A stretch of 63,887 nucleotides of DNA, the filler included, from Hausera hauseri (taxonomy: Eukaryota), in NCBI GenBank assembly GCA_046269625.1. It is 12 parts of 12 records of this genome, joined end to end, with 100 filler letters (N's around TTAATTAATTAA, not from the genome) between each part and the next. Parts side by side here need not be neighbours in the genome. Positions count along the whole stretch, not along the records: positions 8,932 to 15,570 come from JBJURY010079436.1; 11 more parts are not named here. One strand, 5' to 3'. Under the pieces are notes generated by a model. The model was not told the DNA's origin and ran no database searches. It was given only the letters and a program-made list of their open reading frames with translations. Both the position numbers and the translations under genes were made by a program. This document shows, piece by piece, positions 953-55,649 of the stretch. Numbering within the stretch: position 1 is the first letter of the stretch; the number at the start of each line of letters is the position of its first letter.

Positions 953-3900
953 CTGGCTGGGGACCGTGCGTGCTCGCCGCCGCTGCATCACATCCCCTTT
1001 CCTTTTTATTTTTTCCAACCATAAGCACATTTATACGTTCAGTGCGTGTATATACTGTCGCTTTTGATATACTTCAATCATTTTCGTCGCTGGATTCCAA
1101 TATCAAATCCTATATCACAAATTCTTGTTTCCGCACACTCAAAAAGGACGTCAACTTCAAGCCGCCTTCTACAACTTATCAATACAGTCACCGAACACTA
1201 AAGACCTATCAGACAAAAGGTCAGACCACTGTCAATTCGTAGACGAAAAGCCGTTAAATCAGAGTTCAATGAACTCAAAACGGCTGTCATCATTCGAAGA
1301 TCAAAATCACCATGCGCTTCACCATTGCATGTAGTAACAAAGAAAGATGACACTTACAGACCACGTGGAGACTATCGGCAGTAAAACAACCTAACAGCCT
1401 TGGATTCTTACCCTTTACCTCTCATAAAGGTATCCTGCATAGGCTAACCAATACTAATAGGTAATTTATAACTGATTTGCATAAAGCTTATTATCAAATT
1501 CCGGTTGCACCTAATGATATTCCAAAAACTGCTGTTATTACTCCATTTGGCCTCTATGAATATATCTTTATGCCGTTTGGTTTACGTAGTGCTTCCCAAA
1601 CTTTTAATCAACACATTGATACCGTCCTCTCAGGCTTTGACGTTGCTCATACATATATTGATGACAAATTAGTTGCCTTCACATTTGTTAAACAACATCA
1701 AGAACACCTCCGTATTATCTTTCACAGACTACATCACGGCAATTTGCAAGTTAATTTCTCCAAGTGTCATGTCTTTTGAAAACGTGTTAGTTTCCTAGGT
1801 TACATTATCAATCCTCAAGGCCACTCTCCACAACCGGATCGACTACAGCAATTGAAAAACATAATGCTACCAACGACTACTACGGATATGAGGAGTGTCT
1901 TAGGCACACTCCATTTCATCCACAAATACGTACCGCACTGTTTTGAGCTTACAGCACCTTTCGCACATCCATCATCCGAAAAAAAGAGGCAGTTGATCCA
2001 CTGGATTCCTGATTTAGCAACCAAATGTGATCACTTATGCGAAGGCCTAAAAACCGTTGAAATACTGGCCTATCCAAAACCCAGTGCATATCTCATACTT
2101 ACCACCGATGCCCCTACCACATTTACTGGTTCAATACTACACCAGATTTCTAACGGCGTCGATGAACCATTAGAATTTTACTCCAGGAAACTTACAGAAC
2201 CCGAAAGCCGTTACTCAACAATTGACCGTGAGTTACTTTCCATAGTTCTGGCAGTAAAACATTTCAAACACCTACTTTACTCTCGTCCATTTGTTATTCA
2301 AACTGACCACAAGTCTTTCCTGTATATCATGTCGTTAAAACAACCATCACCGAGGCAAGAACGATATATATCACACCTGTCTACCTTAGTTTTGTTTTAG
2401 AATACATTTTAGGTATAGACAATTTGGTAGCAGATTTTCTATGAGGTCGGTTGGCCCTATTACAGTTCAGCCAAATTTCTCATTCGAAGTCTTAAAGGCC
2501 AATCAACCGTCTGCTGACTTCCTTAGCTCTCAAATCATTTGAACTCATTGGTGGAACTGCTTTTCGTACGTCGAATTCCGGTAATAAAAAGATCATTCTA
2601 ACGAAAGATCATTCATACGAAAGCCAACCTTGCTTCATACGCATTCCATCATCCAGGTTCGAAAGCAACCTTCCGCCTGCTTCAACATCATATAGTTTTG
2701 CCATCAATGCGCAAAGATGTACGGGGCTGGGTTAAGAAATACGTAGCCTGTCAAAAATACAAAATCAGCAAACACCTTAAACCGCCCCATTACCATTTTC
2801 CCTGTACATCACGTTTTCATACGGTTCATCTTGATGTCGTTGGTCTTTTACCTTCTGACAACGGATATCCATATATTCTTACTATGATGGATCGTGCTTC
2901 TCTCTGTCCTAAAGCCGTTCCTCTTTGTTCAACAATTACTGATTCAGTAGCCGACGCCTTTATAAAAATCTGGATCAATTGTTTTGGTTCCCTACGTTAC
3001 ATAATAACGAATCAAGGCCCGCAATTTGAATCGGAATTCTTCAAATCATTTGCTAAACGCTTGTGGATATCCCATTTTCACACAACACCGTATCATCCTC
3101 AAGCAAATGGCCTCCTTGAAAGGTTCCATCGAACAATGAAAATTTCCTTAAAAATCTTGGCTGACAATCATCGTAATTGGACGTTCATTCTACCATTTGT
3201 TCTACTATCGTGGCTAAACACACCCTCAAACACTGCCGGTTATGCTCCAGCCCAGGCACTCTTTGGGACTCCAATTTGAGCTTTATTTGAACTCTCTGAT
3301 CTCGACGACAACCACACAGGAGAAAACATTCGTGCAGCACAATCTCACTTCATCGAGGTCCGCTCAGACTCCTTCTGCCTCCTCTTCAACAATAACAAAT
3401 TGTACATTCCGAAGGACTTGTACACCGTCAAGTTCGGCTGAAGGATCAATTGCCTTCGGATTTTAGACCTCAATATGTTGGCCCATACAAACTGCTGAAT
3501 TTCTCATCTCATACAGATACCACCTTACGCCAAGATAAACCTTACAACGTCCACATTATTAATCGGAAGCCTGCTTCTTCATTGATGACAATCTGGGTGC
3601 CAATTCTACCTGCAATTCAAACTCAACTCCTACTTCTTCCGATTTTCTAAATGACTTTGCGCCGTTGCAGCAATCACCTTTCTGCCTCTCCCTTTCATCA
3701 TCGCCATCACGTTCTTCACCTCCATTACTTCATCGACTGTTTCATCGCCTTCAATTGCATAGCCTCTTTTGCTTGATTTATTCTCCTCAACACCCTCATC
3801 AGTTTCATCACAAGCAATACCACACATTGAACCAGATAATCTCACAAAACTTCCATCACAAAATGTCACTCAACAGCCAAGGACAAATCAATCAAGTAAG

Positions 3901-8831: not shown

Positions 8832-9014
8832 NNNNNNNNNNNNNNNNNNNNNNNNNNNNNNNNNNNNNNNNNNNNTTAATTAATTAANNNNNNNNNNNNN
8901 NNNNNNNNNNNNNNNNNNNNNNNNNNNNNNNCATTTTCAAAATATCATCAAATCGTTGACTAAAATCTAAATGCAGAGCATCCAAGTGCTCACAATAGGA
9001 TAGAATGTTTTGTA

Positions 9015-11386: not shown

Positions 11387-12162
11387 AGGTAGAGGACTGT
11401 TCAATCTTCTTCTTTTAATTAGGTGTTGATTAAATACTTCCGTATTTTTCTTTACACAGTATTGAACAATTTAATCGTTGCTGCTCGGGGAAGAGTGGGT
11501 ATGATTCTGATCTTACATAGGTGTGAGTAGGTAATGTGTTGCAAGAGAAGTAAAAACTGTTTAATTATTTCTTTACTTACTTACTGGTTAGTATCCTACT
11601 TTTTACTTGGGATTTACTGAGGACTCCGTCAGGTCGCTTTTACCTGGTCGGAAACTTTCCAATGTTATTTAACTTTATTTACTTAAACTTGTTAGACAGA
11701 TAATAGACAAAAATGTAAACGAAATTATAACTCTAGTTTACGTACGAAATTACGATAATATTAGCAAACAAAAACACAATAAAATAAATGATCTTACGTG
11801 AAGTCATCATCAATGGTAAAAACTACTGTGTTCATGCACAAAGATCATACTTTATATAGTGTTCTGATTGTAATTACATTAAATAAATAAAGTAACATCC
11901 TGCGGAAAATTCCATTAAATCAGGTTCAGAAAATCATGTCACATATAAAAATTCACATGGTCATTATCAACTAATACAAATTATACATAGCAATCATGTA
12001 ATAATCAGTAATGGCACATAATGTACATAATGAAGTCCATAAATAATCATGCGTCTCTCAGATGATACATTAATTTTATCAAAGGTCAAGAACTGACCAC
12101 TACATGTCACTAAATGTTGCACAATATTCGACGGGGGTTCTGAGAAAATTGTCCCAAATTGA

Positions 12163-13596
12163 TCATTGGTCCAATATGATGGGCCTGTGGACATATTTGC
12201 CTGTGGATCTGGATTTGTACCGTATGGAATCTGGCTCGTATACTTCATCATCTAATACCAGTGTTTCATCCACCTGAATTTTACGTTTTCTTCCACTTTG
12301 TGATGCTGTAGGTGCTTTTCGCAGCGTATCAGAGGCCGCACTTTGGGTGATATATTCGTCGGACCATTTTATTTGTTTATATATTGATTGATAGCACTGC
12401 GCTAAGGCAGTGCTTCGGAGAGAGAAGCCCTTTGTATCATAAAATTTGCGGGCCAACTCTTTGTAGGTATTGGACGATAACTGATACCGACGGATAACAT
12501 CCTCGTGATATAAAATATCACGTACTCCCGCTATCCGTCGGATTGGACATTTGAAATGGTTCACAACCATTTCCACCACGTCGGCTCCAATAATTACTTT
12601 ATCCGTTATAACTTCTGTCACTTTCCTGTAAAAATCCACGGGATCAAGTTGATTGTTAATACTGGATTCTGTGAGGCCAGTTATATGCGTATCAAAATTA
12701 TTGATACGCTGTCTTGGTGTAATGATTCCATATAGTAGGGTGTCTCCGTTTATTGTTAGAATTGAAGCTTCAATAGGTTGAAGCTGATTCCACTGGTCAT
12801 AGGCCAAATTTACGGCTGCTATGACCATGTCTTTGTCTGAGACTTTTTCCAATCTTCTATAGGGGACTGTTCTGTATTTAACATAGTCAGGTTCTGGGAG
12901 GTTGAAGCATATTCCCTCTGGTAGGCCGGGATAAAATTTTTCTCGCTTGATTACTTCCATTGCCAGAATTACACGGTTTGTGCATGAACGGATTTTAAAA
13001 GTGTTATTCTGGAGAAAAGTATAATCGAACGCTAACGCATGTTCCGGGTCCACGTTAATTAAATCACCTTTAATAGCTGTCTTCTTATCTGTGGTCTTTA
13101 TCTGAATCTGACCTACCACGCCATACAAATTCATAGAATGAAATCGATCAGGCAGGATTATAATGTCATCGAGAAGAAATGACATAGCTTTAGTTAGTTG
13201 CATTATAGCAAATGATCGGTTGGCCATACTATACCCCTTGAGGTTGTTGGGGATTTGTTGGGTTTGAGGATAATTTAAACTGGTCACATTATTGTTGTGA
13301 GATACGAAATATTGATTTGAAGGGTTAGCGTTAATCATGTGACTTTTGACATTGCTATACCAATGTTTCGAACGGTTGATGGTCTGGATCTGATGGAACG
13401 TTGTAGCTGAGACTGCAAAAACAAGAGTCAATACATAATTTATCATGATACTTAGACACAATACAACGGTTATCAAACACACCAAATGGGTAATCGTTGT
13501 GGTTTGACTGTTACTATTTCTATTTAGTAAGATAAGTCGATGTTCGGCTATCTTTCTACTTAGGGTTGCGTATATTGCAATCCCTGTTACTAATTG
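12163..13596 (-). CDS. Retroelement extra ORF, in-frame after a single UGA: hydrophobic segment plus ISG20/REX4-like DEDDh-fold domain with degenerate catalytic residues
   Basis: The frame is open from 13596 to 12163. ASILTINGDTLLYGIITPRQRINNFDTHITGLT..KVIIGAD aligns by eye with the REX/ISG20 pattern SxVNxxGxxLYDxxxxPxxxIxDYRTxxSGxT..KxxVGHD. Confidence 0.7.
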   Translation of the reverse strand, partial: QLVTGIAIYATLSRKIAEHRLILLNRNSNSQTTTITHLVCLITVVLCLSIMINYVLTLVFAVSATTFHQIQTINRSKHWYSNVKSHMINANPSNQYFVSHNNNVTSLNYPQTQQIPNNLKGYSMANRSFAIMQLTKAMSFLLDDIIILPDRFHSMNLYGVVGQIQIKTTDKKTAIKGDLINVDPEHALAFDYTFLQNNTFKIRSCTNRVILAMEVIKREKFYPGLPEGICFNLPEPDYVKYRTVPYRRLEKVSDKDMVIAAVNLAYDQWNQLQPIEASILTINGDTLLYGIITPRQRINNFDTHITGLTESSINNQLDPVDFYRKVTEVITDKVIIGADVVEMVVNHFKCPIRRIAGVRDILYHEDVIRRYQLSSNTYKELARKFYDTKGFSLRSTALAQCYQSIYKQIKWSDEYITQSAASDTLRKAPTASQSGRKRKIQVDETLVLDDEVYEPDSIRYKSRSTGKYVHRPIILDQ

Positions 13597-13599
13597 TCA
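13591..13599 (-). promoter_or_regulatory. Candidate programmed stop-codon readthrough signal UGA-CAA-UUA
   Basis: It is the only stop in about 1135 in-frame codons, and its 3' context matches the CARYYA consensus. Confidence 0.7.
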
Positions 13600-15570
13600 G
13601 CTGGGGTTATCCGTATCTAACGGATTCGTTAGATTTCGCATATCTATTCTCACCCAGCTCCTTTTTCGCTTGTGTCGCCTGTATACAATTTTACTCACTA
13701 ATATCAATATTATTATGAAGACTACAGGGGTTATTAAACTTATGCATATTATTTCTAATTGGGAATGACTATATACTGCTCGTGTGGGTTTGGGTGTTAT
13801 CTTGTGGCTAATTGTGTTAGTTTTATGCGATACGTCTGTCTCATACATTACTCTCGTGATTGCTGTCATTATTTTAGTAGAAATTACCTTATTTTTATCA
13901 TCTAGCAATTGTAAAATTATTGTATATCGAGTATTAGGGTCTAATGCTGCGCATGGTACTACTAAATCATCTGGAGTTATGGTTCCCTTGGCTACCACTG
14001 TATCTTGTTTCTTACAACTAAACTTAATTTTTGCAAAATCTAAATCCGGTCTGACCGAAATGATTAATGCAGTTGGAGCTGCTACTACTGTGACATTTCC
14101 CCAGATTGATCGCTTTGTACAATAATAAGATGTGTAAGGTTTCACTAAAATGGTCATATCCGTTTTATTATTCAAGGACTGGGCAGGTGGTACCATAATC
14201 TTGTTCGGTATTTCATCATACTCCTTCTGGTTCTTGTATCGTATGAACATCGTCGGTCCTTTTCTCTGTATTTTATTTTTCAATTTTCCATGTTCTTTCC
14301 GTGACAGAGAATATTTTACCTCGTATATTTTTCCTCTTATTACGTTACAACAAACTTGTTGTTGTTCATCCGTTAATTCACATTTCACTAGTCTTTGTTT
14401 ACTTCCCAGTTCTTTTATGGATATTGTTATCCATCTAATGTATTCTAATTCTATCGTACTACTAATTTCTAGGCAACTTCGTCCACTTTTAAATCCCATC
14501 GGTCTTATTATTAGTTGAGCGAGTATTATTGCATCTAATAGGGTTTCATTCATTTCATGTCTATTAGGAACTCGTATATACCTGTGAAATTTGGTATATA
14601 GACTATAATAATAGTCTCCTTTCTTCTTTATGAGCGTAAGATGTACTTCATGTGTTCCTGAAGTGTCTATTAGACATAACGTTTCATTTGTCGACGAGCG
14701 TAGCATACAGTCATTATACCGCTCATTCGAGTTCTTTTCATAACCATAGATTGGGGTTGTTTGTATCCTTATAATATACTCGCCAGGCATTCGTCTGGTA
14801 GTATACCAGCGAATGCATTTTTGGCCTTTCATGGAGTACGTTATTTGGTATTTTAGGCTTTTTAACCATAGGTCTTCATTTATCGCCGTGGCATGTCGTA
14901 TCTTTGCTTGTTCAATTTCCTGTTCCGTCATCTGTCCTGCTATTTGGGGAATCATAAAGATAGTCGTTAATAATAGGCTCTTTATTAGCCAATGCAATCC
15001 GGGGATTGAACTTTCTTCTTTTACTTTTTCGGTAATACTTAATACAAGTTCCTTTTCGCCTTTTCTTAACTCGCTTCTTCGGGCTGCTGGCTTACATCTG
15101 TTAACATGGACCTTCACCGATGTATTGTTTTTCCTTAAAGATATGTTTGGCATATTTACCTTTTCTACTTCATATGGACCCTTATATGGTCTATCTAACT
15201 TAGATGTCTTACCTTTCTTAAGTGCCGGAGAATATAACATCACTTGATCGCCTATTTTGATTTTTGGTTGCTTAGTCTTTTTATCGTAATATTTCTTATA
15301 TTTGGATTTATAATCCTCTTGGTTCCCGCAAATCGTTTTGTAGGCCAATTGTAAACGTTCTTGCATTAATTGTTTGTAGTCTTCCATTTCCATCAAATGT
15401 GAGACAGGTCTCACATTAAAGTCTAAATCAATGGGTAATCTTGCATCCCGCAAATACATTAGATAAAAGGGGGTTTCTTTAGTGGCTTCATGCACTGACG
15501 TTCGATTTACGAATACACACGCATTGACATACTCATCCCAATCGTCTTGCCTAGTATTGACCACCGTTTG
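13597..15570 (-). CDS. Gypsy integrase C-terminus fused to a type I membrane protein (signal peptide, Cys/FN3-like ectodomain, TM); 5' truncated by contig end
   Basis: Integrase end DWDEYV..VHEATKETPFYLMYLRDARLPID and GDQV..SKLDRPYKGPYEV..VHVNRCKP. Then hydrophobic WLIKSLLLTTIFMIPQIAG, FN3-like ALDPNTRYTIILQ, TM LEIICISLITPVVFIIILILVSKIVY and basic RRHKRKR. Confidence 0.88.
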   Translation of the reverse strand, partial: QTVVNTRQDDWDEYVNACVFVNRTSVHEATKETPFYLMYLRDARLPIDLDFNVRPVSHLMEMEDYKQLMQERLQLAYKTICGNQEDYKSKYKKYYDKKTKQPKIKIGDQVMLYSPALKKGKTSKLDRPYKGPYEVEKVNMPNISLRKNNTSVKVHVNRCKPAARRSELRKGEKELVLSITEKVKEESSIPGLHWLIKSLLLTTIFMIPQIAGQMTEQEIEQAKIRHATAINEDLWLKSLKYQITYSMKGQKCIRWYTTRRMPGEYIIRIQTTPIYGYEKNSNERYNDCMLRSSTNETLCLIDTSGTHEVHLTLIKKKGDYYYSLYTKFHRYIRVPNRHEMNETLLDAIILAQLIIRPMGFKSGRSCLEISSTIELEYIRWITISIKELGSKQRLVKCELTDEQQQVCCNVIRGKIYEVKYSLSRKEHGKLKNKIQRKGPTMFIRYKNQKEYDEIPNKIMVPPAQSLNNKTDMTILVKPYTSYYCTKRSIWGNVTVVAAPTALIISVRPDLDFAKIKFSCKKQDTVVAKGTITPDDLVVPCAALDPNTRYTIILQLLDDKNKVISTKIMTAITRVMYETDVSHKTNTISHKITPKPTRAVYSHSQLEIICISLITPVVFIIILILVSKIVYRRHKRKRSWVRIDMRNLTNPLDTDNPS

Positions 15571-15670
15571 NNNNNNNNNNNNNNNNNNNNNNNNNNNNNN
15601 NNNNNNNNNNNNNNTTAATTAATTAANNNNNNNNNNNNNNNNNNNNNNNNNNNNNNNNNNNNNNNNNNNN

Positions 15671-15855
15671 AGAAGTATTCACTCTGCAGTTCATTTAGAA
15701 ACTGGACTCAGTCTATTTTCTCACTGCATATTTCATTTGTAAGCCGTTTAATTTCAGCTTCTAAATCTATTTTGTAATACTAAATATATAGATAATTTCG
15801 GAGAACAGATTTGAAATCATACCATTTGTCGTACTATTCCTTGAAACAACGCAAT
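15671..15855 (-). pseudogene. 5' end of a small-intron gene, decayed paralogue of 55328-55582
   Basis: (ATT)ALFQGIVRQM-[GT..AG]-YYKIDLEAEIKRLTNEICSEKID*VQFLNELQSEYF. Start codon mutated and one in-frame stop. Confidence 0.6.
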
Positions 15856-16038
15856 GCTTTTTTCAAGGCCCATATTTATAGCCAACCACCAAAATTAAAA
15901 CAAAAATTTTTTGACACAAACCGACCAATCCGATTACACCAATTTGGGGTGAGAATAGTAAAACCCAGTCTGCCGCAGAAATCTCACAACCAAAATTTTA
16001 ACAAATTTTACGCGCCAAATTCAAATTTTAAACTGCTG

Positions 16039-20259: not shown

Positions 20260-20322
20260 ATAAAATTTAGTTTAGTTGTTAATGTTAATATTTAAGAATG
20301 AATTTATTTAAGAATATTTCAG

Positions 20323-20719
20323 CTATTCACGAAACGGTAATAGTTAAAATGATAAGAGCCAGAACATCGGAACAACTCAAGTGTCAAGGATCATCTCAAT
20401 CCAAAATGGTACAATATTTATTACATTACCAGAATAGACAGTTCGGACCAGCGTCGTTTATCAAAAAACGGATAAGCTACTCCAAGGCTATAGTATTAGA
20501 CAACTCCATGAGAGACACGCAAAATCGAAAAATATCGTTTCTAAAATATCCAAATTCACCCGTTTCAGGAGAACTAGCGCAATTATATGCCAAAGCCGGA
20601 TTATTCCGAACTCCGACAGGACAGATCAAATGTTTATATTGCCAAGGAGAATTTCAATATGAACAGACAAAGGATCGACCAAAAGAGAAACATAAGAAAC
20701 CGTACCATACTTGTCCTTA
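20323..20719 (+). CDS. BIR-domain (IAP-like) protein, truncated by contig end
   Basis: RKISFLKYP..LYAKAGLF..IKCLYC-x16-H-x6-CP gives the exact BIR Cx2Cx16Hx6C spacing. Preceded by a TTTCAG acceptor. Confidence 0.85.
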
Positions 20720-20881
20720 NNNNNNNNNNNNNNNNNNNNNNNNNNNNNNNNNNNNNNNNNNNNTTAATTAATTAANNNNNNNNNNNNNNNNNNNNNNNNN
20801 NNNNNNNNNNNNNNNNNNNTAATAATAGTCAGTTGTTTTGCTTGTGTTATAAACAAAAAATGATTTTGTAGCAGATAAATA

Positions 20882-22521: not shown

Positions 22522-25500
22522 TTATTTTAGCCGCCGATGTCCATACGCCCAACTCTTATTTCCCCCAACCCACTTTCACTTATCATCGTTACATGACAAA
22601 ACGACTTTTGCACTAGTTATTGTGTACAGCTGGTGCTCAATTTATCGGATGATCGTTTGAGACACAACAGCCACTGAGTGTCCTCCTCCTTCTGCTGCTG
22701 CTGCTTCTTCATATATACAGCGATAATCACCGTGGTTGATTTCCGTCTGTCTAAGTCCAACTCCTTTTCCCCGAATTTTCGGTCCACAATTCGTCAGAAG
22801 ACTGTAGCACTTTGGGCGTAGGAATATCCATTCCCGATGGAGAACCCTGCCTTCACTTTCATCCTTGAAGCAGCCGATTTTTTGTTTTTCTGTTGTACAA
22901 CGGATGATCCGGTGGATAGTTTGACGTGTTTAATAATCCATCTGACTGCATTTCCTGCAGTAGCTGTTCGCGATTGACTTTTTTCAGCCGCAGGAAAAAA
23001 CTGTCTGTGTCACCGGCAATTATACTAATGTAACAGCCGTTAAACATTTTCCAGTAATGTACCAAATCGCGATACTGTTGCTCATACATACGCAACTTTC
23101 TCAGGTCTAATACCACTTGTCCGATATAACTTGGCTGGTCCAGAACGACTGCTTCTCTGTTTAACAGCACCGCAACCAATCCATCGGCAATGTGTATTGA
23201 CCGCCTGAACTGTGCTTTGCTCGTGCACGTGACCAACCGCTTTTCGCTGTTGCATAGGTGTACACTGAGACGCTTTTTCAGATTCTTCACGGATTTCCAT
23301 AGAGGAAATTGTTTTTCAGCTTGCAGTAGTCCTTTTCGAACTTTGTACAGGCTGCGGCTCGTTTTCTCGAATTTCCATCTATGTACGCCTTGAATATGGG
23401 AGCCTGAGCAAATCGGACTGCATGATGCAGCTGTGTGACGCGAACACTGAGCTGCATGTAGAACTGTAGCAAACGCCAATGGACCACGTACTTCAGCTTC
23501 AGTTCATGCGTCATGGGCAGTTTTTTCACTTTGAGCCTGGCGGACATTGGTTAAATGGTGCGATCGGTAAATCGTCCAAAACGTCATGCAGCTCGTCTGG
23601 TACCACGAGTTCGACCTCCATCACGTATCCGACTGAGCCTGCCATGTCTTTTTGTGGTAGCTTGACCATCATGTCGTACAGATCTTGTCTGTCGACTACA
23701 CATTCGAATGAACCGTACGGCAAGAGTTGCGAAAGCTCCAGCCGTACATGTTATTAATACGGACCTGATGTTTGTTGACAAATACCATGCCACCGCGAAT
23801 ACCAATATCAAACAGCCGGTATATTTACGGGTCTTGCATCAGGTCAGTGTCTCGATCCAGTGATATTAGAGCTGACGCCCAACTCATTCCCAGTATGGAA
23901 TAAAAAATAAGTGGCTCCAGCCTATCTTCAGCCAAAGCTTTCGCTCAAAACGCTTTAAACACATCGGCTAATAAGTACACGTCCAGTTTAAGATACTGGA
24001 GCATGTAATCCAACATCTTTCTACAGCCGAGTTCTGCCAACATTTCTGTGCTTTTCGGTATTCATCTTTGCGATACCTGTCCATAGCGGTGTAATTCCTC
24101 TGCTGTCCGGAGTCGCTAATACGATGTTGCAAAATAATATGGAAATATGCCTCTGCTGCGTGAAATATGTGCGGGAAACTGAGTCAATGTTAGCGGCACA
24201 TCCGACAAGGCATTCACCACCTTTGCCAATGATTCATTAAGAAAGTGCAATGAATCAAGGAAGCGTACCTGGAACCGGTTTATACGAGCAGACAGTGACA
24301 GGTATTTCTCCATCGTAGTCTCCATCGTTTATTGTCCATTTCAAAATACGGTGACAATCATAACCCCTGAAGTTATAAAATACCACCGGTATGAATGGCC
24401 GCACACGCCTTGCCAAATTGTATGAATTACATGCTGCTCTTAGATATCGACCAGTAAAATGATCGTGATCCAGTACGAGTCGTTCCAGTGCGTCGAACGG
24501 TAATATTTTATTGCACAGGTATCATTCATCTGTGACTGAAAACATCCGGCGTTCATCTTCATCTGTTCACATCAAGGACTTGTTGCTATTTCTACTGTAC
24601 CATGGCGCGATTTCAGTTTCCACTGTGGTTTGCTACTTCTGCAAGAAATTGCGTACCCAATTCCATCCGTGGAAAACATAATATTGAGGTTGACCTGCGG
24701 CTTTTATTAAGACAACTAATATACCGACAGCGATCGGAACATGTTTTTGGTCATATATGTTGTGCCATGGTATGATATTTTCAATATCGGCATATACTAC
24801 ATATACCGGACTGTCGGTTTTTGACAAATCAGTGAACCTGAGTTCCTGTTTGACGGGCATAACATACATTAGTATTCCTGAAGAATTTCGTCTGCACAGA
24901 ATCACGTGTTTAGTCCATGTTGTTTCCAATTTGAATCCATGAAGACGTACAGGAAACCATTTACACTGTATCCATTTTTGGAGGAAATGGTCATGTTCTA
25001 TGTTTAGTAATCTGTCCAGATTTGTCACTACAACGTAATGGTACTTTTTTTTTGTTCCAGTAGCAACAAATTTACTGAGCGGCCATTTGGGTTCCGACTA
25101 CGATAGATGATATCAATATGAGGATTTTTGTAAATTTCTTCATCGGCTGGTATTTCCACGATTGCGTTGTACCGGAACACGTTGATTGTCAGTGTCGGAT
25201 TACGCAGTTCAAAAGCCAGAATGGATTTCAGTTTCACCGGCATCCAGATTTCATCGAAATCAAATTCGGAAAAATATTTCTTATACTGTTTTGGACGAGA
25301 TGCACTATGTCTGTCCACTTGGTCATATTTCAATACCGCCAGAATACTGTAAAGAAAATCGTATTTATCATTAGTATTTTTTACATTTACTACCACCAGA
25401 GACTGCTTCAGATCTGCAGATCTCGGTATGAATTATGTCACTTGACTTTATTATGATAAAGCCGAGGGTGACAATTCGTATAATTCGCCATCCACTATCC

Positions 25501-26353: not shown

Positions 26354-29300
26354 GCTACCATATGTAGAGTTGTTTCTTCACGTGGCTTCTGTGTTGTTAT
26401 ATCTGTGGCAAGTATATTTTCTATGTCTTCGCCTTTTTGTAATCCTGGATAAATACTTTCTGCTAAAGTGCATAAGGTAATTGTCTGATTTTGCTTTCCT
26501 GATGCATTAATTTGTATTATGTACTCTGTCTGACGTTTTAATGCGTTATATTCTACTTGTCGTGTAATTTGTATAAGTTTTACTTTTTATCTGTCATATA
26601 AGGTTCGACAGTTTATTTTTATATAGTAGTTTAATTCTTTGTCAACAATGAACACTATTCTCTACTGATGGACCGAAAATCTTATAGGTATATCTTTAAT
26701 TTCTGTTTTAGGTATATTGTTTGTTGTAGTAATTCGGGCGGTCGACATTTTAGTCGGGGTTTCCATAGAAATTTTCCAAATTCTATTTTCTGGATAGTAG
26801 GGTCGTAATTGTATACTTGATTGATTAGGCCGTATCGCGTATAAGTCAAATTTTACTTTGATTTCTTGGTTCACGGGTATTTTACAACACAGATGTTGCA
26901 CATCTGCATGAATGAAACAATATTTTATTTTCGGAGTTGGTCCTATTGCTGCCTTAAATACGATACAGATTTCCCGATTGACGGTTAGCTCCGTCCGAGT
27001 ATTTACTTGAATACATTGTCTTTCCTTATTCACGGAGATTCTATGGATATTTTAGTTTAGTAGTCTTATGGCTGGATTAGTAGATCGTAACATTTTGTTA
27101 ACTTTTATTCCATGCTGCCTATTCCCAGAGGGATGACTAGTTTGAATTGTGGTTTTGTTTCATTAATTTTAGATAAATTCGGTAGGTACAGAGGATAGGT
27201 CAGATTAAAAGTATGTCCGAAATCTATGTCGCAACATTGCGTACGTTCTCCGGGCTCAAAATCACAATTCTTTGCTTCTTTTGTTATTACATCGACTACG
27301 ACAATTTGGATCCTTCCAGAATTTTGGTGTGGTTTCCGTGTTTTAAATCCAACGCATGTGGAGTTAGGTGAATAATAATGGATCCTTATTGCTTGTAATA
27401 ATCTTGTATCTTCTTGTCTTTAATTTGCTTCGACTGTTGATTTCTTTCCGTTTTAATAACCTCCAATCTTGCTCCACTTTTCCAAATTCTGTAACTGTTG
27501 TACCACTCTTTAGCTTGTGTTCTCGGGATATAGGAGGCAATTAACGATAATGCTAAAACTATTTCAACGTACGATATTGGTCTATTGATTATGAAGGATA
27601 TTTTCCTTTCCCCTTTTCCTTGATTCGAGCTGGATCGCAAATTAGAGCGTTTTTCAGGTCTTATTTCTGTTTTAACAATTCTCTGTATGGATACTGTTTC
27701 TTCTTCACCATTTGTATTAATGTGTACAGTAGTTGGTGTGGTTTGAATAACTTCATAAGGTCCTCGTCCTGTACGAGTAAGTTTTAATGATGTACCTTTC
27801 TTTGCAACTAGATAGCGCACGTAGACCCAGTTCCCTTTTTCTAAATCGTGGGGTTTGGCCTTCTTATAGTATTGTTTCCTAAACTGTTTTTGATACTCAA
27901 GAGTGAGCGTTTTTGCTATATCCCAACATTTTGGTAATCGTATTTGCAAGTCTTTTGCGAAATTTGGTTCTAAATCTTCTGAATTTGCGTGATAAGGAGT
28001 CATCCCTAAGTCCGTAGGTAATATTGCTTCGTGTCCATACATCATAAAGAGTGACGTAAATCAGGTGGCCGGGTGTAAAGTAGTATTGATAGCAAATTGC
28101 GTTCCTTCTAAAAATTTGTCCCAGTACTTTTGATCCTTTGCTAGTACAGTCGATAAGATTCGTGTAACTGTTGCATTATACGTTTGACCATCCCACTACA
28201 CTGAGGGTGATATGCAGTAGTAGTTAGTCGTTTGATTTCGAAAATTTTAGAAATTTTGTCAAATAATTCTCTTGTAAAAATTCTTCCTCTATCGGTTAGT
28301 ATTTGATCGGATGGTCCGTATCTGCAGATGATTTTCCTTACTACTGCGTCGGCTAGAGTTTCCGCCTTTTGATCGATTAGTGCGATCAATTCCACAAAGT
28401 GTGTTAAACAATCTACGCACGTCAGAATATATTTGTTATTTTTATGTGTTGTATGTAAAGGTCCTACTATATTCATAGACATAGCTTGTATAGGCCTGTC
28501 TGGTACATCGATTGGTTTTAATTCTGCTATATAGTTTTCACTTTCTTTTGCTTTGTTGCACAGACTTCATAGGCGTCTACCCAGTTCTTTACGTCGATAT
28601 AAACGCTTGGCCAGTAATACTTATTTAATATTCTTTCTAATGTTTTCTTCCATGCCATATGTCCAGCTAAATGTGAATCGTGTTCGGCCATTAACACTTC
28701 CGTCCGTAATCCTTTTGGAATAACTACCAGTTTCCATCCCTTTCGTTCGTAATATAAAATATTATCCAGATTTGATGTATAATATTTGTGTACGTGTCTC
28801 TGTAAGTGTTTCTTTAGTTGACGTCCTCTTGGTATCTCATCTTGCTCGTCAAATTTGACTATTTGTTGGATAACTTTATCTTTAGCTTGTTCTGCAGAAA
28901 TTTCGATTGCTTTATTTAGTGTTAGGGTCTGCTGTTGCTCGACTAATTTTTCGAGCTGGGCTTTCTTCATGGTCGTAATTGTGCTTGTCTTTGTTTTAAG
29001 ACTTGATAAAGCGTCTGCGTCAATGTGTTTGTTTCCAGGTTTATATTGGAATTCAATGTTGTATCGGGAGATTTCCTCAATTCACCGATTTAATCTACAT
29101 GTTGGGTTATTTGCCCGTCCTTTAACGTTGTAACCGCCTTGGGATTGGTAACTATAATAATTTTCTGCCCATAAACGTAGACATTGAAATGCCTTAGGGC
29201 TTCTTTTACGGCTAGAGTCTCAAGTTCAGATACTGAATAATTTTTCCCAGCTTTTTTATGCGATCGTCCTCCATATGCAATTGGATGCTCCAATTCTTCG

Positions 29301-31967
29301 CCTTCTCGTTTCTGAGCGAATTCGTAACCAATTCCTTCTTTACTTGAATCTGTTTTAATTATAAATTGTAAATTAAAATCGGGTTATCTTAACACTGGTT
29401 CACTTGTTAAAAATTTCTTCATTTCGTCGAATGCTTTCTGTTCAACATCGGTCCATCTCCATTTGATACCTTTTTTAATAGCCGATATAGTGGCGCGTTT
29501 ATTCTCGAATTGTCTGGCACATATTTCGCATAATATCCACATAAGCCTAACCAATGTCTCAACTCTTTCTGGTTCTGGGGTTCCATACAATCCAATATTT
29601 TATTTATTAAAGATTTATCTGGTTTTAACCCTCCTTCAAAGACTATATGTCCTAGATAAGATGCAGCATTTTGTGCCCATTTAGATTTTTTTGGGTTCAA
29701 TTTCAATCCTGCCTGTTCCAACCGCATAAGTGTGTTTTGATATCATTTTGGTGTTCGTCTTCTCTTTTTGATGCTATCATTACATCGTTTAAATATGCGA
29801 ACGCGTGATCTAGTCCCATTAACATCTTATTCATCATTCTGGTGAAAATAGCTGGGCCGGTTACACCGAACGGCATGACGTTAGATTCGTAAACTCCGTC
29901 GTGTGTCTTGAACGCTGTTTTATAGTGGTCATCTTCTTCAATTTCCACTTGCCAGTATCCGGATTGTAAATCTAGTGTGGTAAACCATTNNNNNNNNNNG
30001 CTTCTTTCACTGATGGTAACGGAAATGAGCCTTTCATCATGAGCGTATTTAGGGCTCTGTAATCTATACAGAATTGGTGTTTAGTGTACCTTTTTTCTTA
30101 ACCATGAGTATTGGTGAGTACCAAGATCGATAGCTTGGTCGTATTCTGTCAGCTTTTAACATGCGTTCTACCTCTTTGGTTGTTTCAGGCCTTAATGAAT
30201 GCGGTGGTGGATACCATTTAGGCATCTTTTGCTCTTCCAAGTCAATTTCATCATTGGAGCCAGGTTTCTTTTTTAATGGAATCGTTAATCTTAAGGTTTT
30301 TGCTATGCCTATATCTTCTTCATTTTGTGCAATAATCGACTTATATCTAAATGGTAATTCGTAAAACTGACAATACGCTTCTGGTGAAAATTTTATTTCG
30401 ACGTGAGGTGGAAATTCAGCATATTTATATGGTTTTTCTTCGATTATTATTGTTGACACCTTATAAGTATGACCCAATGTAGTATTGGCGTACGACGTTA
30501 CGGGAGTTGATGCATTATTTACTAACCTGATTGGTACTCTTCCTGTCGTTAATCTTGTCAAAATATTACTAAGTATAATATTTGGATTAACGTCTTCTTG
30601 TGGCTCAAAATATACTGGTTGGTCGTCCTCTTCGCGGATTTGAGCATAAATTAGCATTTTGGTTCTAGGCGGTATATTTTCGTCGACGGGAATCCATACT
30701 TCTCCCTGTTTGCTTTCTTTCATTGTCTTGATACCTTTTACTGGTCCGAGTTCTATTAGTTTTCCGGTTTGTAAGTTTATTGCGATATTGTTAATTGCTT
30801 TAGTATATCGCAACCCAACACTACGTCATCGGTTAGTTGGTCCATTATGGCAAACTCGTGTCGGAGGTTTTGGCCCATTAATTGAACTAGGGGGCTCCAC
30901 TTAAATTTCGGTTTGGATTCTTGTCCGAAGACTCCGATGCTACCTGGATTTGATGACGATGCAGGCTGCAGTTGTTTCCGTAATATAGGCGGTATTGATT
31001 CTAATTTTATAAATGAGTCTCTGATCCTGTGTCGATTAAAGTATAGACTTCCCAATCTTCAATGGTAATCTTTGTGAAGGGTCCCTCTTCCATAACTGTT
31101 CCATAACAACTTGATATGTCTTTTGGTCTTTTAATTGAAGAATTTTGTGTCCGTTTATTGTTATTTCTGGTGATAAGATGATATTCTCGGTCAACTGTTT
31201 CAGTTCTTCGTTAGGGTATAAGTCGTTGATTGCTACACCAATTGCATTGTTTCTAATTAACGGTTCTTGTACTATAGAATTTTTGAACGATTTCACTCCT
31301 TGTGTTCCCCAGACTGTTGATCTGGTCTCTATATTGCGAGCTATTCTCGGTGAGTACAATACCCTATGGTCATCTTCCGCTCGTCTTTGACTAGTGATTT
31401 GCATTTTCTTTAATACTCCGTATTGTTTTGTTCCTTCATAAGGATCTTCACAGTTAAAAGGTTTCTGACAGAATGCCGATCTATATGACACCATAGATGT
31501 TTTGTCGCAATCCTCGTATATTGGAGTTGTTGGCGGTATGATGGGCAAAGGTGCCTTAATTACTGAATACATTTTGTGTCTATTTGGTCCGAGGATTACT
31601 TCTTCCTTAAGCTCATCATCATCTGAATTATTTCTTCGCGTCATATGTTTCTTAACCTTGCGTTTCAGCCGAAATATGGCTCTTGCTCGTCGTTTGTAAT
31701 TATAGTAGCCGACATGACGTTCAACGTCATATTTCCATCCATTTTCCTCATATGCTTTAAGCATTTTGCCGAATGGGATGATGATTGCGGTTAAGATTTT
31801 GCAGGAAAATCCTGTTAATGTAAATATTTCATACCCATTTTTAACTGCTTGGATTACCGCTTTTACTAGTTGTACTAAGAAATAGATTGATAAAATTTAG
31901 ATGCGGCTTGCCCAAAAATTAAAAATCTTCCCCATATCTTGTAGAGTATTTCGGTAGTTACCCAGAT
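26354..31967 (-). mobile_element. Decayed Ty3/Gypsy element with integrase-fused ectodomain
   Basis: Protease LIDTGS/VVLGCDIL, dUTPase-like insert, RT (LDLQSGYWQV, MPFG, YLND), RNase H (YSVSELETLAV), integrase (HDSHLAGHM, TDRG, TTAYHPQ), then signal-like IVLALSLIASYIPRTQA and Cys/FN3-like modules. Confidence 0.92.
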
Positions 31968-32958: not shown

Positions 32959-35900
32959 ATGTGCAAACTTTACAGTGACTGTTTGGCTCAATTGCACGAG
33001 CCGGAAAATTGCCACAATGTTATGAAGAAATACTTTGGCTATATATGCAACAGGGTTCAGTATTATATATGCCATACATGCGAGGTAGTGTGCCAAACCA
33101 ATTATGAAGACTTTTACAATGTCCATAAACAGCACTTGATTTCTATCACCAAGTCGCAAAAACAAATATTCAGTACCAATATGCCAATAACGACGTTTGT
33201 TCCAAAGGAAAATCGAGGATGTAGTTTATATGTGTATTGCACATGTGTAATACACTACCCTCAGAATTGCCACAATGCCATGAGAAGCTATTATGAATAC
33301 AAATTCAATAAAGTTCTCTATTATATTTGTCAAGGATGTGAGGCTGTATGTGATGGAGAATACACGAAGTTTTACAATCATTATATTGCCCATTTAACAG
33401 ACTTCAATTTAAAGCAAAAGAAGGTTATATATAATGAACAGCATCCTGCTGTGACAGCGCAGCCTGCTTTGGCAGCGCATCCTGCTTTGGGTGCACAGCC
33501 TGCTGTGACAGCTCAGCCAGCTTTGGTAGCGCAGCCTGCTTTGGCTGCAAGGCCTTATACAAAACGCCCATCAGAAGTAGCAGCAGATGATCCATCAAAA
33601 GGTCAAAGAGAGCGGCTAGTTAATGCAGCTACACTGAAGAGCAAAGTGCGGCGATACTTCATTGCAGCAGTGTGGCAGACATCGCTCTATGAATTCCTGG
33701 AATATTCAAAGGAAGAGACAGCAGGAATTCTGCAGGACAACTTGTTGGAGCTGCAGGCCCTTAAAGTGAACTTCAAATTGAAAGCCACCTTCACCAATGT
33801 TAAAGTAGAGCTGTCTAATACAGTCTACGAGAAAAAAACAGGCCACTATTGAAATCCTTTAACATTATTGATTTCATTACTGAGGACTATACAAGGCTCA
33901 TCTGCGAAGCCGAAGAAAGCCAAGACAAGAGCGGTTGGACTTTAGCAACAATGAAGGGGTTACTTGTGCATATGCCCAAGTATTTTCCCATGAGAGGCAA
34001 GTCCTACATACTGCTTCCTGAATGGATAGTTAAGAAAAAGGCATGTGTCAATGTTCATAACAATGACAACATTTCATGTATGCCATTTTATCAAAACTAG
34101 TCCAAGATCAACATAATGCCTCCCGAGTTTGGATGTATGACAAAGTGCAACACACATATAACTTTAGCTGTATTTTATTCCCGCCAAGCCTAGATGAAGC
34201 CGTGAAATTTGAAAGCGTGAACAACATCTCATTCAACATCTTCGGATTGGAGGAGGACAAATGTTATCCATTACATGTGTGCAAGGAGGAATTGGAGGAT
34301 CATATGGATCTTCTCCTGCAAGATGATGGAGAAAAGATGCATTTCATCTGGATCAAGAATTTTGAGCGCCTCGTAGGATTTCAAATATTCAAGCATAAAT
34401 CAAGGATGGAAATATGGAAGAGATGCTTTACCCACTTTAGTACGGACACAGCCGCAGAAATACTGGAGGAGAACAAAAATTACTGCAATACAAACTATTT
34501 TATCCGAGCAGAATTCCTCATGGAGTATTACCTGGAATTCAAAAAGTTCGAGAAGATGCAGAAGGTGCCCATTGTTGTCTATTGTAATTTTGAGGCCATC
34601 CTCAGCCCAGTTCATAGCTGCAGCCCTAATCCTCAACATAGCAGCACAACGGCATACCAATATCATGAACTCTCATCATATTGCATGTATGCCAAAGGAC
34701 TGGCAATGAACCCTTCCTATTCAGAGAGCCAGATGCAGCAGCACATTTTATGAAGATATTAGAAGACATGGCTCATAAGCTTGAAAACATGCTTCAGCAG
34801 TATAAGTATACAATGAGCATGTTGAAGCAGCAACAATATGAACGGCGCAAGGCATCAACATGTTATTTGTGTGACAAGTCCTTTACAAGGATAATCATAA
34901 AGTTAAGGATCATTGCCAATTTGCAGGTGCATATCGGGCGCAGCATGCAACAACTGCAATCTTCGCTAAAAAACATGCACATATGTGCCTGTAGTGTTTC
35001 ATAATCTTAGTGGCTATGATTCCCACTTCATTGTTCGGGAACTGGGCTACATTGAAGGAAACATTAATGTCATTCCAAACAGTGAGAAAAAATACATCAC
35101 CTTCACCAAGCATGTGGGTCGCATTAGGTTTCGATTCATTGATAGCTTCCGCTTCAGGAGCTCGTCACTGGGTAGTTTAGTGAAGAACGTCCGTATAGAA
35201 GAACTCTAGGAGACGAAGCGGTTCTTCCCCACTACCTTTGACCTCGTCAAGAGGAAAGGCGTGTTCCCCTATGACTACATAACCTCTTGGTAAACACTGA
35301 ATGAGACATCATTGCCGGACAAGGAGGACTTTTATAGTCAGTTGTCATCCTGCCATAGTAGCGATACTGACTATGAACATGCCCAAATAGTATGGCAAAC
35401 CTTCCTATGCAGGACAATAGGGGAATACAGTGATAGCTATCTCCTCGCAGATGTGCTGCTACTTACAGATGTCTTTCAAAGTTTCCGGGGTTTGACCCTA
35501 AGAGCCACAAGTTAGATTCAGCCCATTTCTTTACAGCTCCAGTAATAAACTTGGCGACGATGCTGCGCTATACTAGCATAAGGCTCCAGATATTGAAGGA
35601 TTACAATATGGTCCTCATGATTGAGAGAGGCATCGGGGGTGGAATATGTCAGGCCATTCACAAGTACAGTGAGGCCAACAACAAATACATGGCCGATTAT
35701 GATCCATAAAAGGAATCCTTATACATATCATATCTGGATGCCAACAACTTGTATAGATGGGCAATGAGCAACCAACTGCTTATGATAACTTCAAATGGGT
35801 CGAAAAGCCTAAAGACGTCCCAATATTGGACCTAGATGCCACTGGGGATACGGGCTATATATTGGAGGTGGATGTGGAATACCTACATAGCATCCACACA

Positions 35901-36960
35901 AGGCATGAGCACCCGCCATTTCTGCCGGAGAGCAAACCTTCGCCCCACGGAAAGCATAAAATGCTGCTCTGTCACCTCGAAAACAGAGAGAGGTATGTAG
36001 TCCACTAAATAAAAATCTCCAACAGACTACCCAAAATGGACTCAGAGTCATCAGGATTTATGGGGCCCTGCAGTTAAGCCAGTCCAAATGGCTGACTCCA
36101 TACATAGACTCAATACCCAGTTGAGGGCCAATGCCAAGAACAAGTTTAAAAAGGACCAATTCAAACTTTACAACAACTCGGTCTTTGGCAAAACTATGGA
36201 GAATATCCGGAACCAGATTAACATTGAGGTGGTATGTGACTGAAAGTGGGCAAGGAAACTCATCGCTAAGCCCAACTTCTACAGCAGCACAATCTACACA
36301 GAGAACCTGGTGCGTTTCCATGTGCTTAAGACATCACTTGAGTTCAACAAGTTTATATGTGGATATGTCCATATTGGATTTATCCAAGACCTTGATGTAT
36401 GACTTTCACTACAACATCATGGTTACTGCATTCAAGGAGCTCCAGCTAATGTACATGGATACGAACAATTTCATATACCAGATCCGCACAAATGATGTCT
36501 TTGAAAAGTATGCAAAATTGGCGCAAAATATGGATACCTCAGACTATCCGAAAGATCATCTAAATTATTTAATTACCAACAAGAAGGTTTTCGGGAAGTT
36601 TAAAGACTAGGTAAATGAGAAGATCATCACCCGTTTCGTGGCGTTGAGATGGAAAATGTACGCCATCGATGTAAGTGGAAGGGTAAAGAAGCGGGACAAG
36701 GGAGTTCAAAAGGCCACATTAGCTAAAGACATTGGCACTGGAGATTTTGAGAGAGTGTGGCGGAGCAAAGTCATATAGTTAATGAGATGAAAAGGATCCA
36801 GTCCCGGGAATATCAGATTGCCACAGTTGCGCTGCGGAAGAAAAATGTCGATTGGTTTGATGACAAAAGGCACATTCTTGAAGACGGAATTCAGGCACTA
36901 TTTCACGTGGCATGTGACATTATTGTAACTATATATATATTGTTATTCTTTGTTCAATAA
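32959..36960 (+). pseudogene. Protein-primed family-B DNA polymerase, copy 1, with tandem N-terminal Cys/His repeats and an AQPALA linker
   Basis: KKACVNVHNND, VVYCNFEA, ACNNCNL, VVFHNLSGYDSHFI, RFIDSFRF, KGVFPYDY, YLDANNLY, NNSVFGKTMEN, YMDTNNF, DTSDYPKDH, GKFKD, FDDKR. Confidence 0.93.
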
Positions 36961-37146
36961 ATGTTGTACAGAAATATCGTGTTGTCTTTCTTGATCAAGT
37001 AATGTGGGATATAGGATAAGGCCAAGTAAAACTAAGTAACTACTATATAGATTAAGACGAAGTAAAACTTAGATAAATAAAATCAATAAATTTGAATATT
37101 CAATACAGTGCGACATTTACTTGCATTCATCTGTCATTATTTCAAA

Positions 37147-37417
37147 ATGTTGAAAACTTGTCCGATTTGTTGGGGGCAGATGCATAACAATGCGTTTGGC
37201 TACATGGGGCACACATACTTTCTGCATAGTCCGTCTGCAGAAATGGCTAAGCAGTAAAATGTCTTGTCCGTTATGCAGAACAAAGTGTGAGTATGTGGTA
37301 GTCCAGAATGCTGAAGACCAGTGCTTGTATGTAACATGGGTAGGTTGTGTGATAAAAATATTACATGAATTCTTACCAGACAGCGACAGTGACAGTGATG
37401 ATACTATTATTATGTGA
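37147..37417 (+). pseudogene. RING-finger gene between the two pPolB genes (frameshifted)
   Basis: MLKTCPICWG / HTFCIVRLQKWL..SCPLCR plus an acidic DSDSDSDD tail. Confidence 0.75.
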
Positions 37418-37710
37418 TTGTAGTGTTCAATACATGTTGTTTTCAATATAGTTTAAGTTTTATAAAACCAACTAATTTCATAACACATTTATTTAGTAAC
37501 AATATAACTTTGACATAACGATAAACAATTTTATATGCACAATGTGAGCCATGTTTACGATAAATACATGTAATGTTCTTTGGTATAGTTGCCTATTTGG
37601 TACATTCATATTCACATATTCTCAATTCTGGAAATATGCTATTAAATATCTTCTTCTTTCTTAAATCAGCATGATCTTTGACATGGAACATACAGAAATG
37701 ATTAACAGAA

Positions 37711-40700: not shown

Positions 40701-41272
40701 GTATGAGCTGAATTATATCGACTTGGAGACGTATAGACACCAGTTTCAATGTGAACTTAATATTGTTGTTGGTGACAAAGACAGCTTCTTCCCTGAATGC
40801 TGTGGTGTTGACTTAAAGTAGCAACTCTTACCGGCAATGATAGAAAACGAGCAGTTACATACGTCAAACTATGACAAGAGTGATCCGCTCTACTCGATTC
40901 GTTTCGCAGTTGTAATAGGCAAATTTAAAGACGAATATAGGCTGCATTCATTTTCAATAGGCGATTTTCATACGGCCCAAATCCTATGCCCTCAAAACCC
41001 AAACCAAACCATTACTCAAATGCAAGGGCGTAAATCTCAAACAGACAGACTTGCAGTTTGACAGCTACCTACAGGCTTATGAAGACGGTTGCAGCACCAT
41101 GGTGGATCAGGAGCGAATTGAAACTAAACACCACCAGCTTATGACAATCAGTTCAAAAAAGAAAGCATTGGATCCCTTCGACGACAAACGCCAGTGGATT
41201 GACAAAAACAAGTGTAGCATATGGACATTACTGTATAAGTATGTGAACATTTTCTTTGTACATATTTTTTGA
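37711..41272 (+). pseudogene. Protein-primed family-B DNA polymerase, copy 2
   Basis: CFLYSIL, FERQNPQLSINVF, VVYADFES, LLGDVFERFR, GIRGG, YIDVNNLYGWAL, NNSLYGK, GDKDSFF, GKFKDE, FDDKRQW. Confidence 0.93.
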
Positions 41273-41820
41273 TTTATTTGTATGTTATATCAATAAAAGT
41301 TTTTAATGTGTCTTATATTTTGTTACTTAGGCTTGTAATAAATATGTACACTTTTCATAATAGTGATTTATATCAACTTTGAGAACTTAAAACGAAGTTG
41401 AAGAAGTCATAATGAGGGCTAAAATGTTTTGTTCTTGGGATGGGAATGTGAAACCATAAGTATATCAGACAGCGTGCTTTGTTCTGAAGGTGGGAATAGA
41501 AAAACCACTGTCAGACACAGCGTGCTTTGTTCTGGAGATGGAAATAGTGATACCATGAGTAGATCAGACACATTTGCAAATTTTTGTGCTACAGCACAAC
41601 AAGGCAAAGTCCTGTGAAGTTGATTCATACATCATTGGACGCTGAATTAAATTTTGCGCAAGATAGACCTAACAAAAAATTTATATACGGAGGTCGAAAA
41701 TTTTTTCAATAACATTAACANNNNNNNNNNNNNNNNNNNNNNNNNNNNNNNNNNNNNNNNNNNNTTAATTAATTAANNNNNNNNNNNNNNNNNNNNNNNN
41801 NNNNNNNNNNNNNNNNNNNN

Positions 41821-50762: not shown

Positions 50763-51061
50763 TTTCTCTCTCTGTCCCTTTCTCTGTCTCTGAATCTGTC
50801 TCAGTCTCTCTGTCTCTCTGTCTCTTTGTCTCTGTCTCTCTGTCTCTTTATCTGTCTCTATCTCTGTCTCTGTCTCTGTCTCTGTCTCCGTCTCTCTCTC
50901 GGTCTGTGTCTGTGTCTCTCTTTGTGTCTGTGTCTCTGTCGCTCTGTCTCTCTGTATCTGTCTCCGTCGGCCAGTCTGTCTTATTTGTCTGTCTCTCCCT
51001 ATCTCACTATCTTTCTCCCTGCCTCATTCTCTCTTCATCTCCCTCTCTCTCGCTCGCTCTG

Positions 51062-51092
<31 letters not shown>

Positions 51093-52314: not shown

Positions 52315-52354
<40 letters not shown>

Positions 52355-52519
52355 GGTCTGTGTCTGTGTCTCTCTTTGTGTCTGTGTCTCTGTCGCTCTG
52401 TCTCTCTGTATCTGTCTCTATCGGCCAGTCTGTCTTATTTGTCTGTCTCTCCCTATCTCACTATCTCTCTCCCTGCCTCATTCTCTCTCCATCTCCCTCT
52501 CTTTCTTTCTCTCGCTCTG

Positions 52520-52550
<31 letters not shown>

Positions 52551-55150: not shown

Positions 55151-55327
55151 AGTAGGGGGATTGGAGCGCACTGGGCCACCCCCCCCCCCAGGATCGATAA
55201 TCAATATTGTATGGGAAATTTATATGGNNNNNNNNNNNNNNNNNNNNNNNNNNNNNNNNNNNNNNNNNNNNTTAATTAATTAANNNNNNNNNNNNNNNNN
55301 NNNNNNNNNNNNNNNNNNNNNNNNNNN

Positions 55328-55582: not shown

Positions 55583-55649
55583 GCTATTTACACACCAATA
55601 TTTTTACCCAACCACCAAAATTAAAACAAAAATTTTTGGCACAAACCGA

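Follow-up and report, generated by a model that had tools for sequence, protein, structure and literature searches.

A UGA codon followed directly by the hexamer CAAUUA ends the Pol of a Ty3/gypsy element in Hausera hauseri (GCA_046269625.1), and a second ORF continues in the same frame behind it. The arrangement probably serves programmed readthrough of type I where Pol ends, in a position like that of SIRE1 and yielding an accessory pseudo-nuclease rather than an Env. The window, by which we mean the whole 63,887-nt stretch of DNA that was analyzed, consists of 12 short contigs joined by N44-12nt-N44 linkers in which the 12 nt form an all-frame stop (e.g., 8832-8931 and 15571-15670). Contig neighbors across linkers are unrelated, so ORF starts at contig edges are artifacts. 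Position 15564, listed in the preliminary description as the limit of the upstream ORF, is no true ORF start, and the ORF leaves its contig (8932-15570) inside the integrase.

The bases around the stop and the shared frame were borne out as previously described. CCC AGC TGA CAA TTA GTA stands at 13605-13588 on the minus strand, and the ORFs at 13597-15618 and 12163-13596 (stop to stop) abut, with one internal stop in the translation of 12163-15618. The 37 codons from this stop to the TTG at 13485, which is codon 38, are all open; the earliest ATG, at 13446, is codon 51. No break other than the TGA at 13597 interrupts 3.4 kb of frame. Feature coordinates are collected in Table 1.

Table 1. Coordinates of features on the contig at 8932-15570, numbered along the window
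Feature	Position	Strand	Basis
Ty3/gypsy integrase, C-terminal part (core end and SH3-like C-terminal domain)	15067..15570	-	phmmer; cut by contig end 15570
Signal-peptide-like hydrophobic segment, in frame behind integrase	14935..15006	-	hydropathy peak at residues 189-207, score 1.55; putative cleavage
Beta-rich ectodomain with cysteines and sequons	13771..14934	-	sequence; FN3-like evidence by Atlas
Membrane-proximal FN3-like domain	about 13831-14103	-	Atlas
Transmembrane helix and basic stop-transfer cluster	13696..13752	-	residues 607-625, hydropathy 3.27
Cytoplasmic tail, 32 aa; end of terminated product	13600..13695	-	read from sequence
TGA, candidate readthrough codon	13597..13599	-	sole stop of the 1,135-codon frame, 15570 to 12166
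CAATTA, exact TMV type I readthrough hexamer	13591..13596	-	chance rates; motif in PMC3159437, PMC13517186
Two predicted hairpins (13585-13562 and 13558-13525), possible stimulator	13525..13585	-	first begins 11 nt past the stop (+12)
Hydrophobic segment, internal signal or anchor	13405..13485	-	codons 38-64, hydropathy 2.63; includes first ATG 13446
Conserved beta-rich domain, no known family	12862..13404	-	conserved with P0001; low-confidence model with strands only
Probable DEDDh 3'-5' exonuclease fold, ISG20/REX type, first strand without D-x-E	12337..12849	-	Atlas, PDB profile
C-terminal tail of downstream ORF, basic cluster common to P0001	12163..12336	-	alignment with P0001
Candidate 3' LTR, 461 nt, TGT...ACA ends	11663..12123	-	begins 40 nt past downstream ORF
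Primer-binding-site-like stretch starting TGG	11643..11661	-	1 nt beyond candidate LTR; read from sequence

The type I readthrough motif is UAG-CAR-YYA (PMC3159437). At 13597 a stop is followed by CAR-YYA with the downstream ORF in frame, and UGA (13597-13599) takes the place of the classic UAG. A UGA site would be expected to work like type I because in plants and yeast the motif is reported to be active behind any of the three stops (PMC13517186). The same source describes it as functional in plants, mammals, and yeast with no structure required, UGA-C is reported as the leakiest tetranucleotide (PMC4615788), and CARYYA has been cited for stop readthrough in retroelements (PMC3441728). Some leak at this UGA is therefore expected whatever its origin. 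Across all frames of the window, 22 of 6,711 stop triplets (0.33%) were followed by CARYYA and 3 of 6,711 by exact CAATTA. Within the 1,135-codon frame, CAR-YYA codon pairs occurred in frame at 8/1,135 positions (0.7%), and any known short context (CARNBA, CTA, CGG) at 45/1,135 (4%). Among the 428 sense codons of that frame lying one change from a stop, 4 had CARYYA next and 22 had any known context. The strict CARYYA motif after a stop is thus a 0.3-0.9% event by chance and the loose context class a 4% event. The observation of stop and context is correct, and it probably exceeds what chance would give.

The contig at 8932-15570 is best explained as the intact 3' end of an envelope-type Ty3/gypsy element. 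The candidate LTR contains a TATA-like box at 11858 and an AATAAA at 11679, both read from the sequence. The window contained no second copy of this LTR and no clear purine tract, and Rfam and tRNA scans of the window returned 0 hits. The order of candidate LTR, primer-binding-site-like stretch, and short leader-like sequence would fit an element that is tandem or circularly permuted.

Residues about 1-190 of the upstream ORF were covered by 149 of the best 150 phmmer matches listed (from 1.84 billion representatives), at up to 49% identity. The best matches were Pol polyproteins with RT, RNase H, and rve in the order RT-RH-IN. The end of pol carries a gypsy-type integrase, identified from its C-terminal part only. 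Behind it the frame continues into a predicted membrane protein, for which 0 homologs were found among 3,997 candidates. On the ectodomain, Atlas returned an fn3 cluster at 0.90 with 10/10 best family matches in one clan, at a recognition of 1878, under the 2300 mark; Pfam and PDB gave no FN3 match in the membrane protein. A Cys/Tyr motif similar to that of the ectodomain occurs in 5 of 6 relatives and was weak by HMM. With an HMM of the FN3-like pieces of 5 relatives, the upstream ORF had the top domain score, 6.7 bits versus 6.2 for the best of 200 shuffles. This result is weak because the pieces were chosen by a pattern written after viewing them and because the upstream ORF did not have the top whole-sequence score. 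These comparisons weakly suggest an FN3 fold for the ectodomain.

Neither ORF had a Pfam, PDB, or Atlas match to a fusogen family (F-type or gB-type). We rejected the membrane protein as an Env: it lacks a fusogen match, it looks FN3-like, and the gB-type Env of its relatives lies upstream of pol. Judged from these features, the protein before the stop is probably accessory. Because the relatives carry their Env upstream of pol, the fusogen of this element is probably also upstream, past the contig end.

The relatives come from integrase trees, both built on 172 columns. A careful tree of 35 rows chosen from the 149 placed the integrase sister to a 13-protein clade (support 84/87, unstarred), and the integrase fell outside that clade in a quick tree, left unfinished, of all 149 rows (support 91). 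Placement with this clade, whose members are planarian-type gag-env-pol elements, is weakly supported. In six of the 13 members (P0003 and P0006-P0010), integrase is followed by a signal-like segment, an ectodomain, and a transmembrane helix, and the protein ends 24-131 aa later, compared with 32 aa here; the helix of P0010 scores only 1.76. The remaining seven end sooner, without a transmembrane helix. Five of the six (P0003, P0006-P0009) have V or L as their C-terminal residue, and three have Thr two places before the end. These ends presumably resemble PDZ ligands, or PDZ-binding motifs, and suggest true C-termini in the relatives. The end of the upstream ORF is not equivalent to them, since its C-terminal residue is Ser.

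In two clade rows, P0007 and P0010 (2/13), a single ORF holds a gB/chuvirus-type fusogen (PF24664) ahead of protease-RT-IN, and the neighbor P0021 has a gB-type Env upstream of pol as well. Elements of Nematoda, Bryozoa, and Platyhelminthes are reported to follow a GAG-ENV-POL order (PMC13524379); Burro elements, too, have an in-frame env that lies after gag and before pol (PMC6431247). Compared by eye, P0007 and P0010 have an Env like that of the Schmidtea rows in the PMC13524379 supplement and unlike that of its bryozoan or nematode rows. Six of 10 bryozoan rows, counted by hand in that supplement, have a gap of 1.1-2.2 kb between pol stop and LTR. We had considered this gap as room for a similar ORF and dropped the idea, the bryozoan Env being unlike that of P0007 and P0010. 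Extra aspartyl protease domains lie behind the integrase in P0002, P0003, P0005, and P0010, and P0003 has ankyrin repeats and apparently several FN3-like repeats after the integrase.

The downstream ORF encodes 477 aa and ends at the stop 12165-12163. Its only match among the best 150 phmmer matches listed was P0001, with 222/407 identities (55%), and because of this homolog we regard the ORF as a real gene. P0001 also has a hydrophobic N-terminus, and both proteins have a sequon directly behind the hydrophobic segment. The beta-rich domain had no Pfam match at E<=10. For the following domain, Atlas returned RNase_T at 0.88 with 10/10 matches in one clan and 142 shared features, below the 170 mark, which is a lead only; Pfam gave no RNase_T match in the ORF, and NCBIfam no meaningful match. 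A PDB profile search gave ISG20L2 (7yw5, E=0.013) as its sole match, with an alignment spanning chain residues 41-107. Single-sequence PDB searches with both ORFs gave 0 matches, and with the nuclease part alone E=1.2. AlphaFold models built on 2-row alignments reached pLDDT 31 and 39. Foldseek searches with these models against PDB and BFVD returned DEDDh-rich lists with none at E<=0.001, and we do not count them as evidence because the underlying models failed. The Atlas and profile matches point weakly to a DEDDh nuclease fold.

DEDDh nucleases carry the motifs ExoI (D-x-E), ExoII (D), and ExoIII (H...D). Around the first strand, a 30-residue stretch contains no D-x-E in either the downstream ORF or P0001, and neither protein has His or Asp in the putative ExoIII-equivalent stretch. 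Because these residues are missing in both homologs, the domain is likely a pseudo-nuclease. A fused pol-downstream form was found neither among the best 150 matches listed nor among 5,404 longer candidates, the latter being weak evidence. Residues about 115-290 of P0021, upstream of its Env, show a DEDDh-like motif set by eye with no Pfam match; as a relative of the downstream ORF it was rejected (no alignment, probability 0.2%).

From this single copy, we infer programmed readthrough on four grounds: the hexamer, the shared frame, the 50 stop-free codons before the first ATG, and the position of the stop between membrane segments. At off-frame stop rates, 50 such codons are expected in 0.4-1.2% of cases. 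Codons 20-44 of the downstream ORF align gap-free to the N-terminus of P0001, with 86 of 2,000 shuffles doing as well, which is weak support for programmed readthrough. The stop lies in a 57-codon loop between two membrane segments, which is where 6 of the 13 clade members end. The predicted hairpins may add to the signal, and 3' stimulators of other readthrough sites are likewise positioned at about +12 (PMC3159437). The fold z of the hairpin region was -2.2 to -3.3. Values of z <= -3 occurred in 5 of 34 100-nt windows of the frame, one of which spans the stop, so the fold signal is not unique. The strongest RNA fold of the frame (z -5.6) lies at 14771-14870 (-), just past the signal-like segment and away from the stop.

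Against readthrough stands a separate message for the downstream ORF, spliced or internally started, which we consider unlikely when both forms are taken jointly. A spliced ORF3 would use a CAG/G acceptor at 13584/13583, a branch point over the stop, and a start in an upstream exon, and the hexamer would be there by chance. ORF3s of LTR elements are typically spliced (PMC5408684), and splicing would also account for the open frame upstream of the first ATG. CTGAC does overlap the stop with CAG/G 14 nt later, a combination that the 3,408 nt contain only twice, but 4 of the 5 branch-point letters come with any UGA-C, and an AG is present between branch point and acceptor. The acceptor also has no pyrimidine tract: with 9-10 pyrimidines in 20 nt, it does not stand out from the frame's 105 YAG sites. 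Splicing would further have to treat two things as coincidence, the sharing of one frame (1 in 3) and the exact hexamer, and we hold it to be quite improbable. Slightly less probable still is a start of its own for the downstream ORF, at ATG 13446 or at TTG/GTG 13485/13482, through an internal promoter or reinitiation, with residues 51-64 as a short signal peptide. ATG 13446 is preceded by A at -3, and the 13 mostly hydrophobic residues behind it close with a small-x-small site, which makes a plausible short signal peptide. P0001 as predicted also begins with a Met of its own, near codon 18 of the downstream ORF. However, the position in P0001 that is equivalent to ATG 13446 comes after the hydrophobic stretch of that protein, and an own start offers no account of the 50 open codons, the shared frame, or the hexamer.

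The stop could also be an accident of this copy, a private nonsense change or a base-call or assembly error in an active family that otherwise makes one continuous polyprotein. Related flatworm elements do put accessory domains in one giant ORF (PMC6431247; P0007, P0010), the upstream ORF lacks the V/L end found in 5 of 6 relatives, and the other elements in the window are full of stops and frameshifts. Yet a random nonsense change would have met CARYYA at only 4 of the 428 stop-neighbor codons, and this stop falls within the 57-codon loop. The frame has no second break in 3.4 kb, the candidates searched include no fused homolog, and a CpG observed/expected ratio of 0.95 gives no sign of methylation-driven decay. 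We give this explanation as small a chance as splicing. These weightings, including the one for programmed readthrough, are rough judgments and were not computed.

Under programmed readthrough, Pol would be translated via the integrase into the signal segment, the FN3-like ectodomain, the transmembrane helix, and the short tail, and most ribosomes would end at the UGA. The CAAUUA context, perhaps aided by the hairpin 11 nt on, would let a near-cognate tRNA read the UGA occasionally, and the downstream ORF would then be made at a fixed low ratio to Pol. With alternating topology, the tail would remain in the cytosol and the next hydrophobic segment would most likely serve as an internal signal, at which the nuclease-like protein would be cleaved off into the lumen. 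Cleavage would release a protein of roughly 410 aa, composed of the beta-rich domain and a DEDDh fold without catalytic acids. Such a protein may be a nucleic-acid-binding pseudo-nuclease, probably an accessory acting against host RNA defense. The C-terminal basic cluster, which P0001 has as well, would instead favor a role in the cytosol or nucleus.

The preliminary description had placed readthrough after the membrane protein and set this apart from a pol/env-like position. Readthrough stands as the best explanation, and the stop does follow a membrane protein. This membrane protein, however, is fused to the integrase as the C-terminal part of Pol, which puts the site at the end of pol, the SIRE1 position, with a different product behind it. 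The preliminary description also proposed a short membrane isoform and a rarer extended one. The extension may instead be cut off as its own protein if the hydrophobic segment at codons 38-64 past the stop works as an internal signal.

A more specific function is doubtful, though somewhat less so than splicing or a nonsense change taken singly. In a lineage of animal gag-env-pol retroelements, the polyprotein would end in an FN3 membrane protein, a tobamovirus-type leaky UGA would dose a dead ISG20/REX-like nuclease, and this nuclease would serve as an Erns-like decoy against systemic RNAi or piRNA defense. On the same doubtful reading, the FN3 membrane protein would be cytokine-receptor-like, and the nuclease would be freed into the secretory pathway or the particle and bind host defense RNA.

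Several known systems share parts of this arrangement. The TMV replicase site, of the type I Beier-Grimm class (PMC3159437, PMC13517186), likewise has CAAUUA directly after an in-frame stop. Unlike TMV, the present site has a UGA stop, an animal retroelement host, and a predicted 3' hairpin, while TMV is described in these sources as needing no hairpin. In SIRE1, a Ty1/copia Sirevirus of soybean, pol and an env-like ORF are reported to be parted by a stop alone, with stop suppression (PMC2829016). Both elements have a single stop ending pol and an in-frame 3' ORF with a hydrophobic segment. The present element differs from SIRE1 as described there in being an animal Ty3/gypsy element whose Pol ends in an FN3-like membrane protein and whose downstream ORF is nuclease-like, not env-like. 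The GAG-ENV-POL errantiviruses with gB-type Env in Platyhelminthes (PMC13524379) and Burro (PMC6431247) resemble P0007 and P0010 in layout. Here the gag-env part would lie beyond the contig end at 15570, and the layout was seen in P0007, P0010, and P0021 only. The terms readthrough, fibronectin, and exonuclease have 0 occurrences in the PMC13524379 main text. In the gypsy-like bdelloid elements Juno and Vesta, the last ORF likewise encodes a nuclease fold of the DEDD superfamily (PMC5408684). Their ORF3 is described there as DEDDy/RNase D-like, with the acidic residues kept (DEED) and no transmembrane segment, and taken as separate spliced units. The downstream ORF here differs in its ISG20/REX-like type, the absence of the first motif, its hydrophobic leader, and its connection to pol across the stop.

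Readthrough in retroelements is known at the gag-pol junction and, in SIRE1, at pol-env. If our reading is true, the making of an accessory protein through a type I site that ends an animal gypsy Pol would add to the known uses of recoding, and annotation that stops at the pol stop would miss a gene in such elements. Two accessory modules of flatworm-type errantiviruses appear to be undescribed: the integrase-fused FN3-like membrane protein (6 relatives) and the probable pseudo-nuclease (2 sequences). The arrangement was not found in the literature searched, where most subscription papers and Repbase entries fell outside coverage.

Other contigs of the window carry further mobile-element remains. 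A second, degenerate element of similar layout lies at 26354-31967 (-), with the order gB-type Env (PF24664, E=0.0022, weak), RT, integrase, signal-like segment, and FN3-like pieces; its contig ends before a transmembrane helix and stop. Degenerate gypsy pol fragments at 1200-3279 (+) and 41769-43716 (-) are about 65-69% alike in DNA. Broken ORFs at 22859-25456 and 32959-40821 have no Pfam match; by eye they resemble Polinton/Maverick-type DNA polymerase B and neighboring genes. A BIR domain (E=1e-7) lies at 20289-20771 (+), and 50763-55227 is taken up by a long array of CT-rich, short-period repeats that is strongly strand-skewed. A 360-nt repeat, 82% identical between 15673-16029 and 55400-55756, is located at the starts of two contigs.
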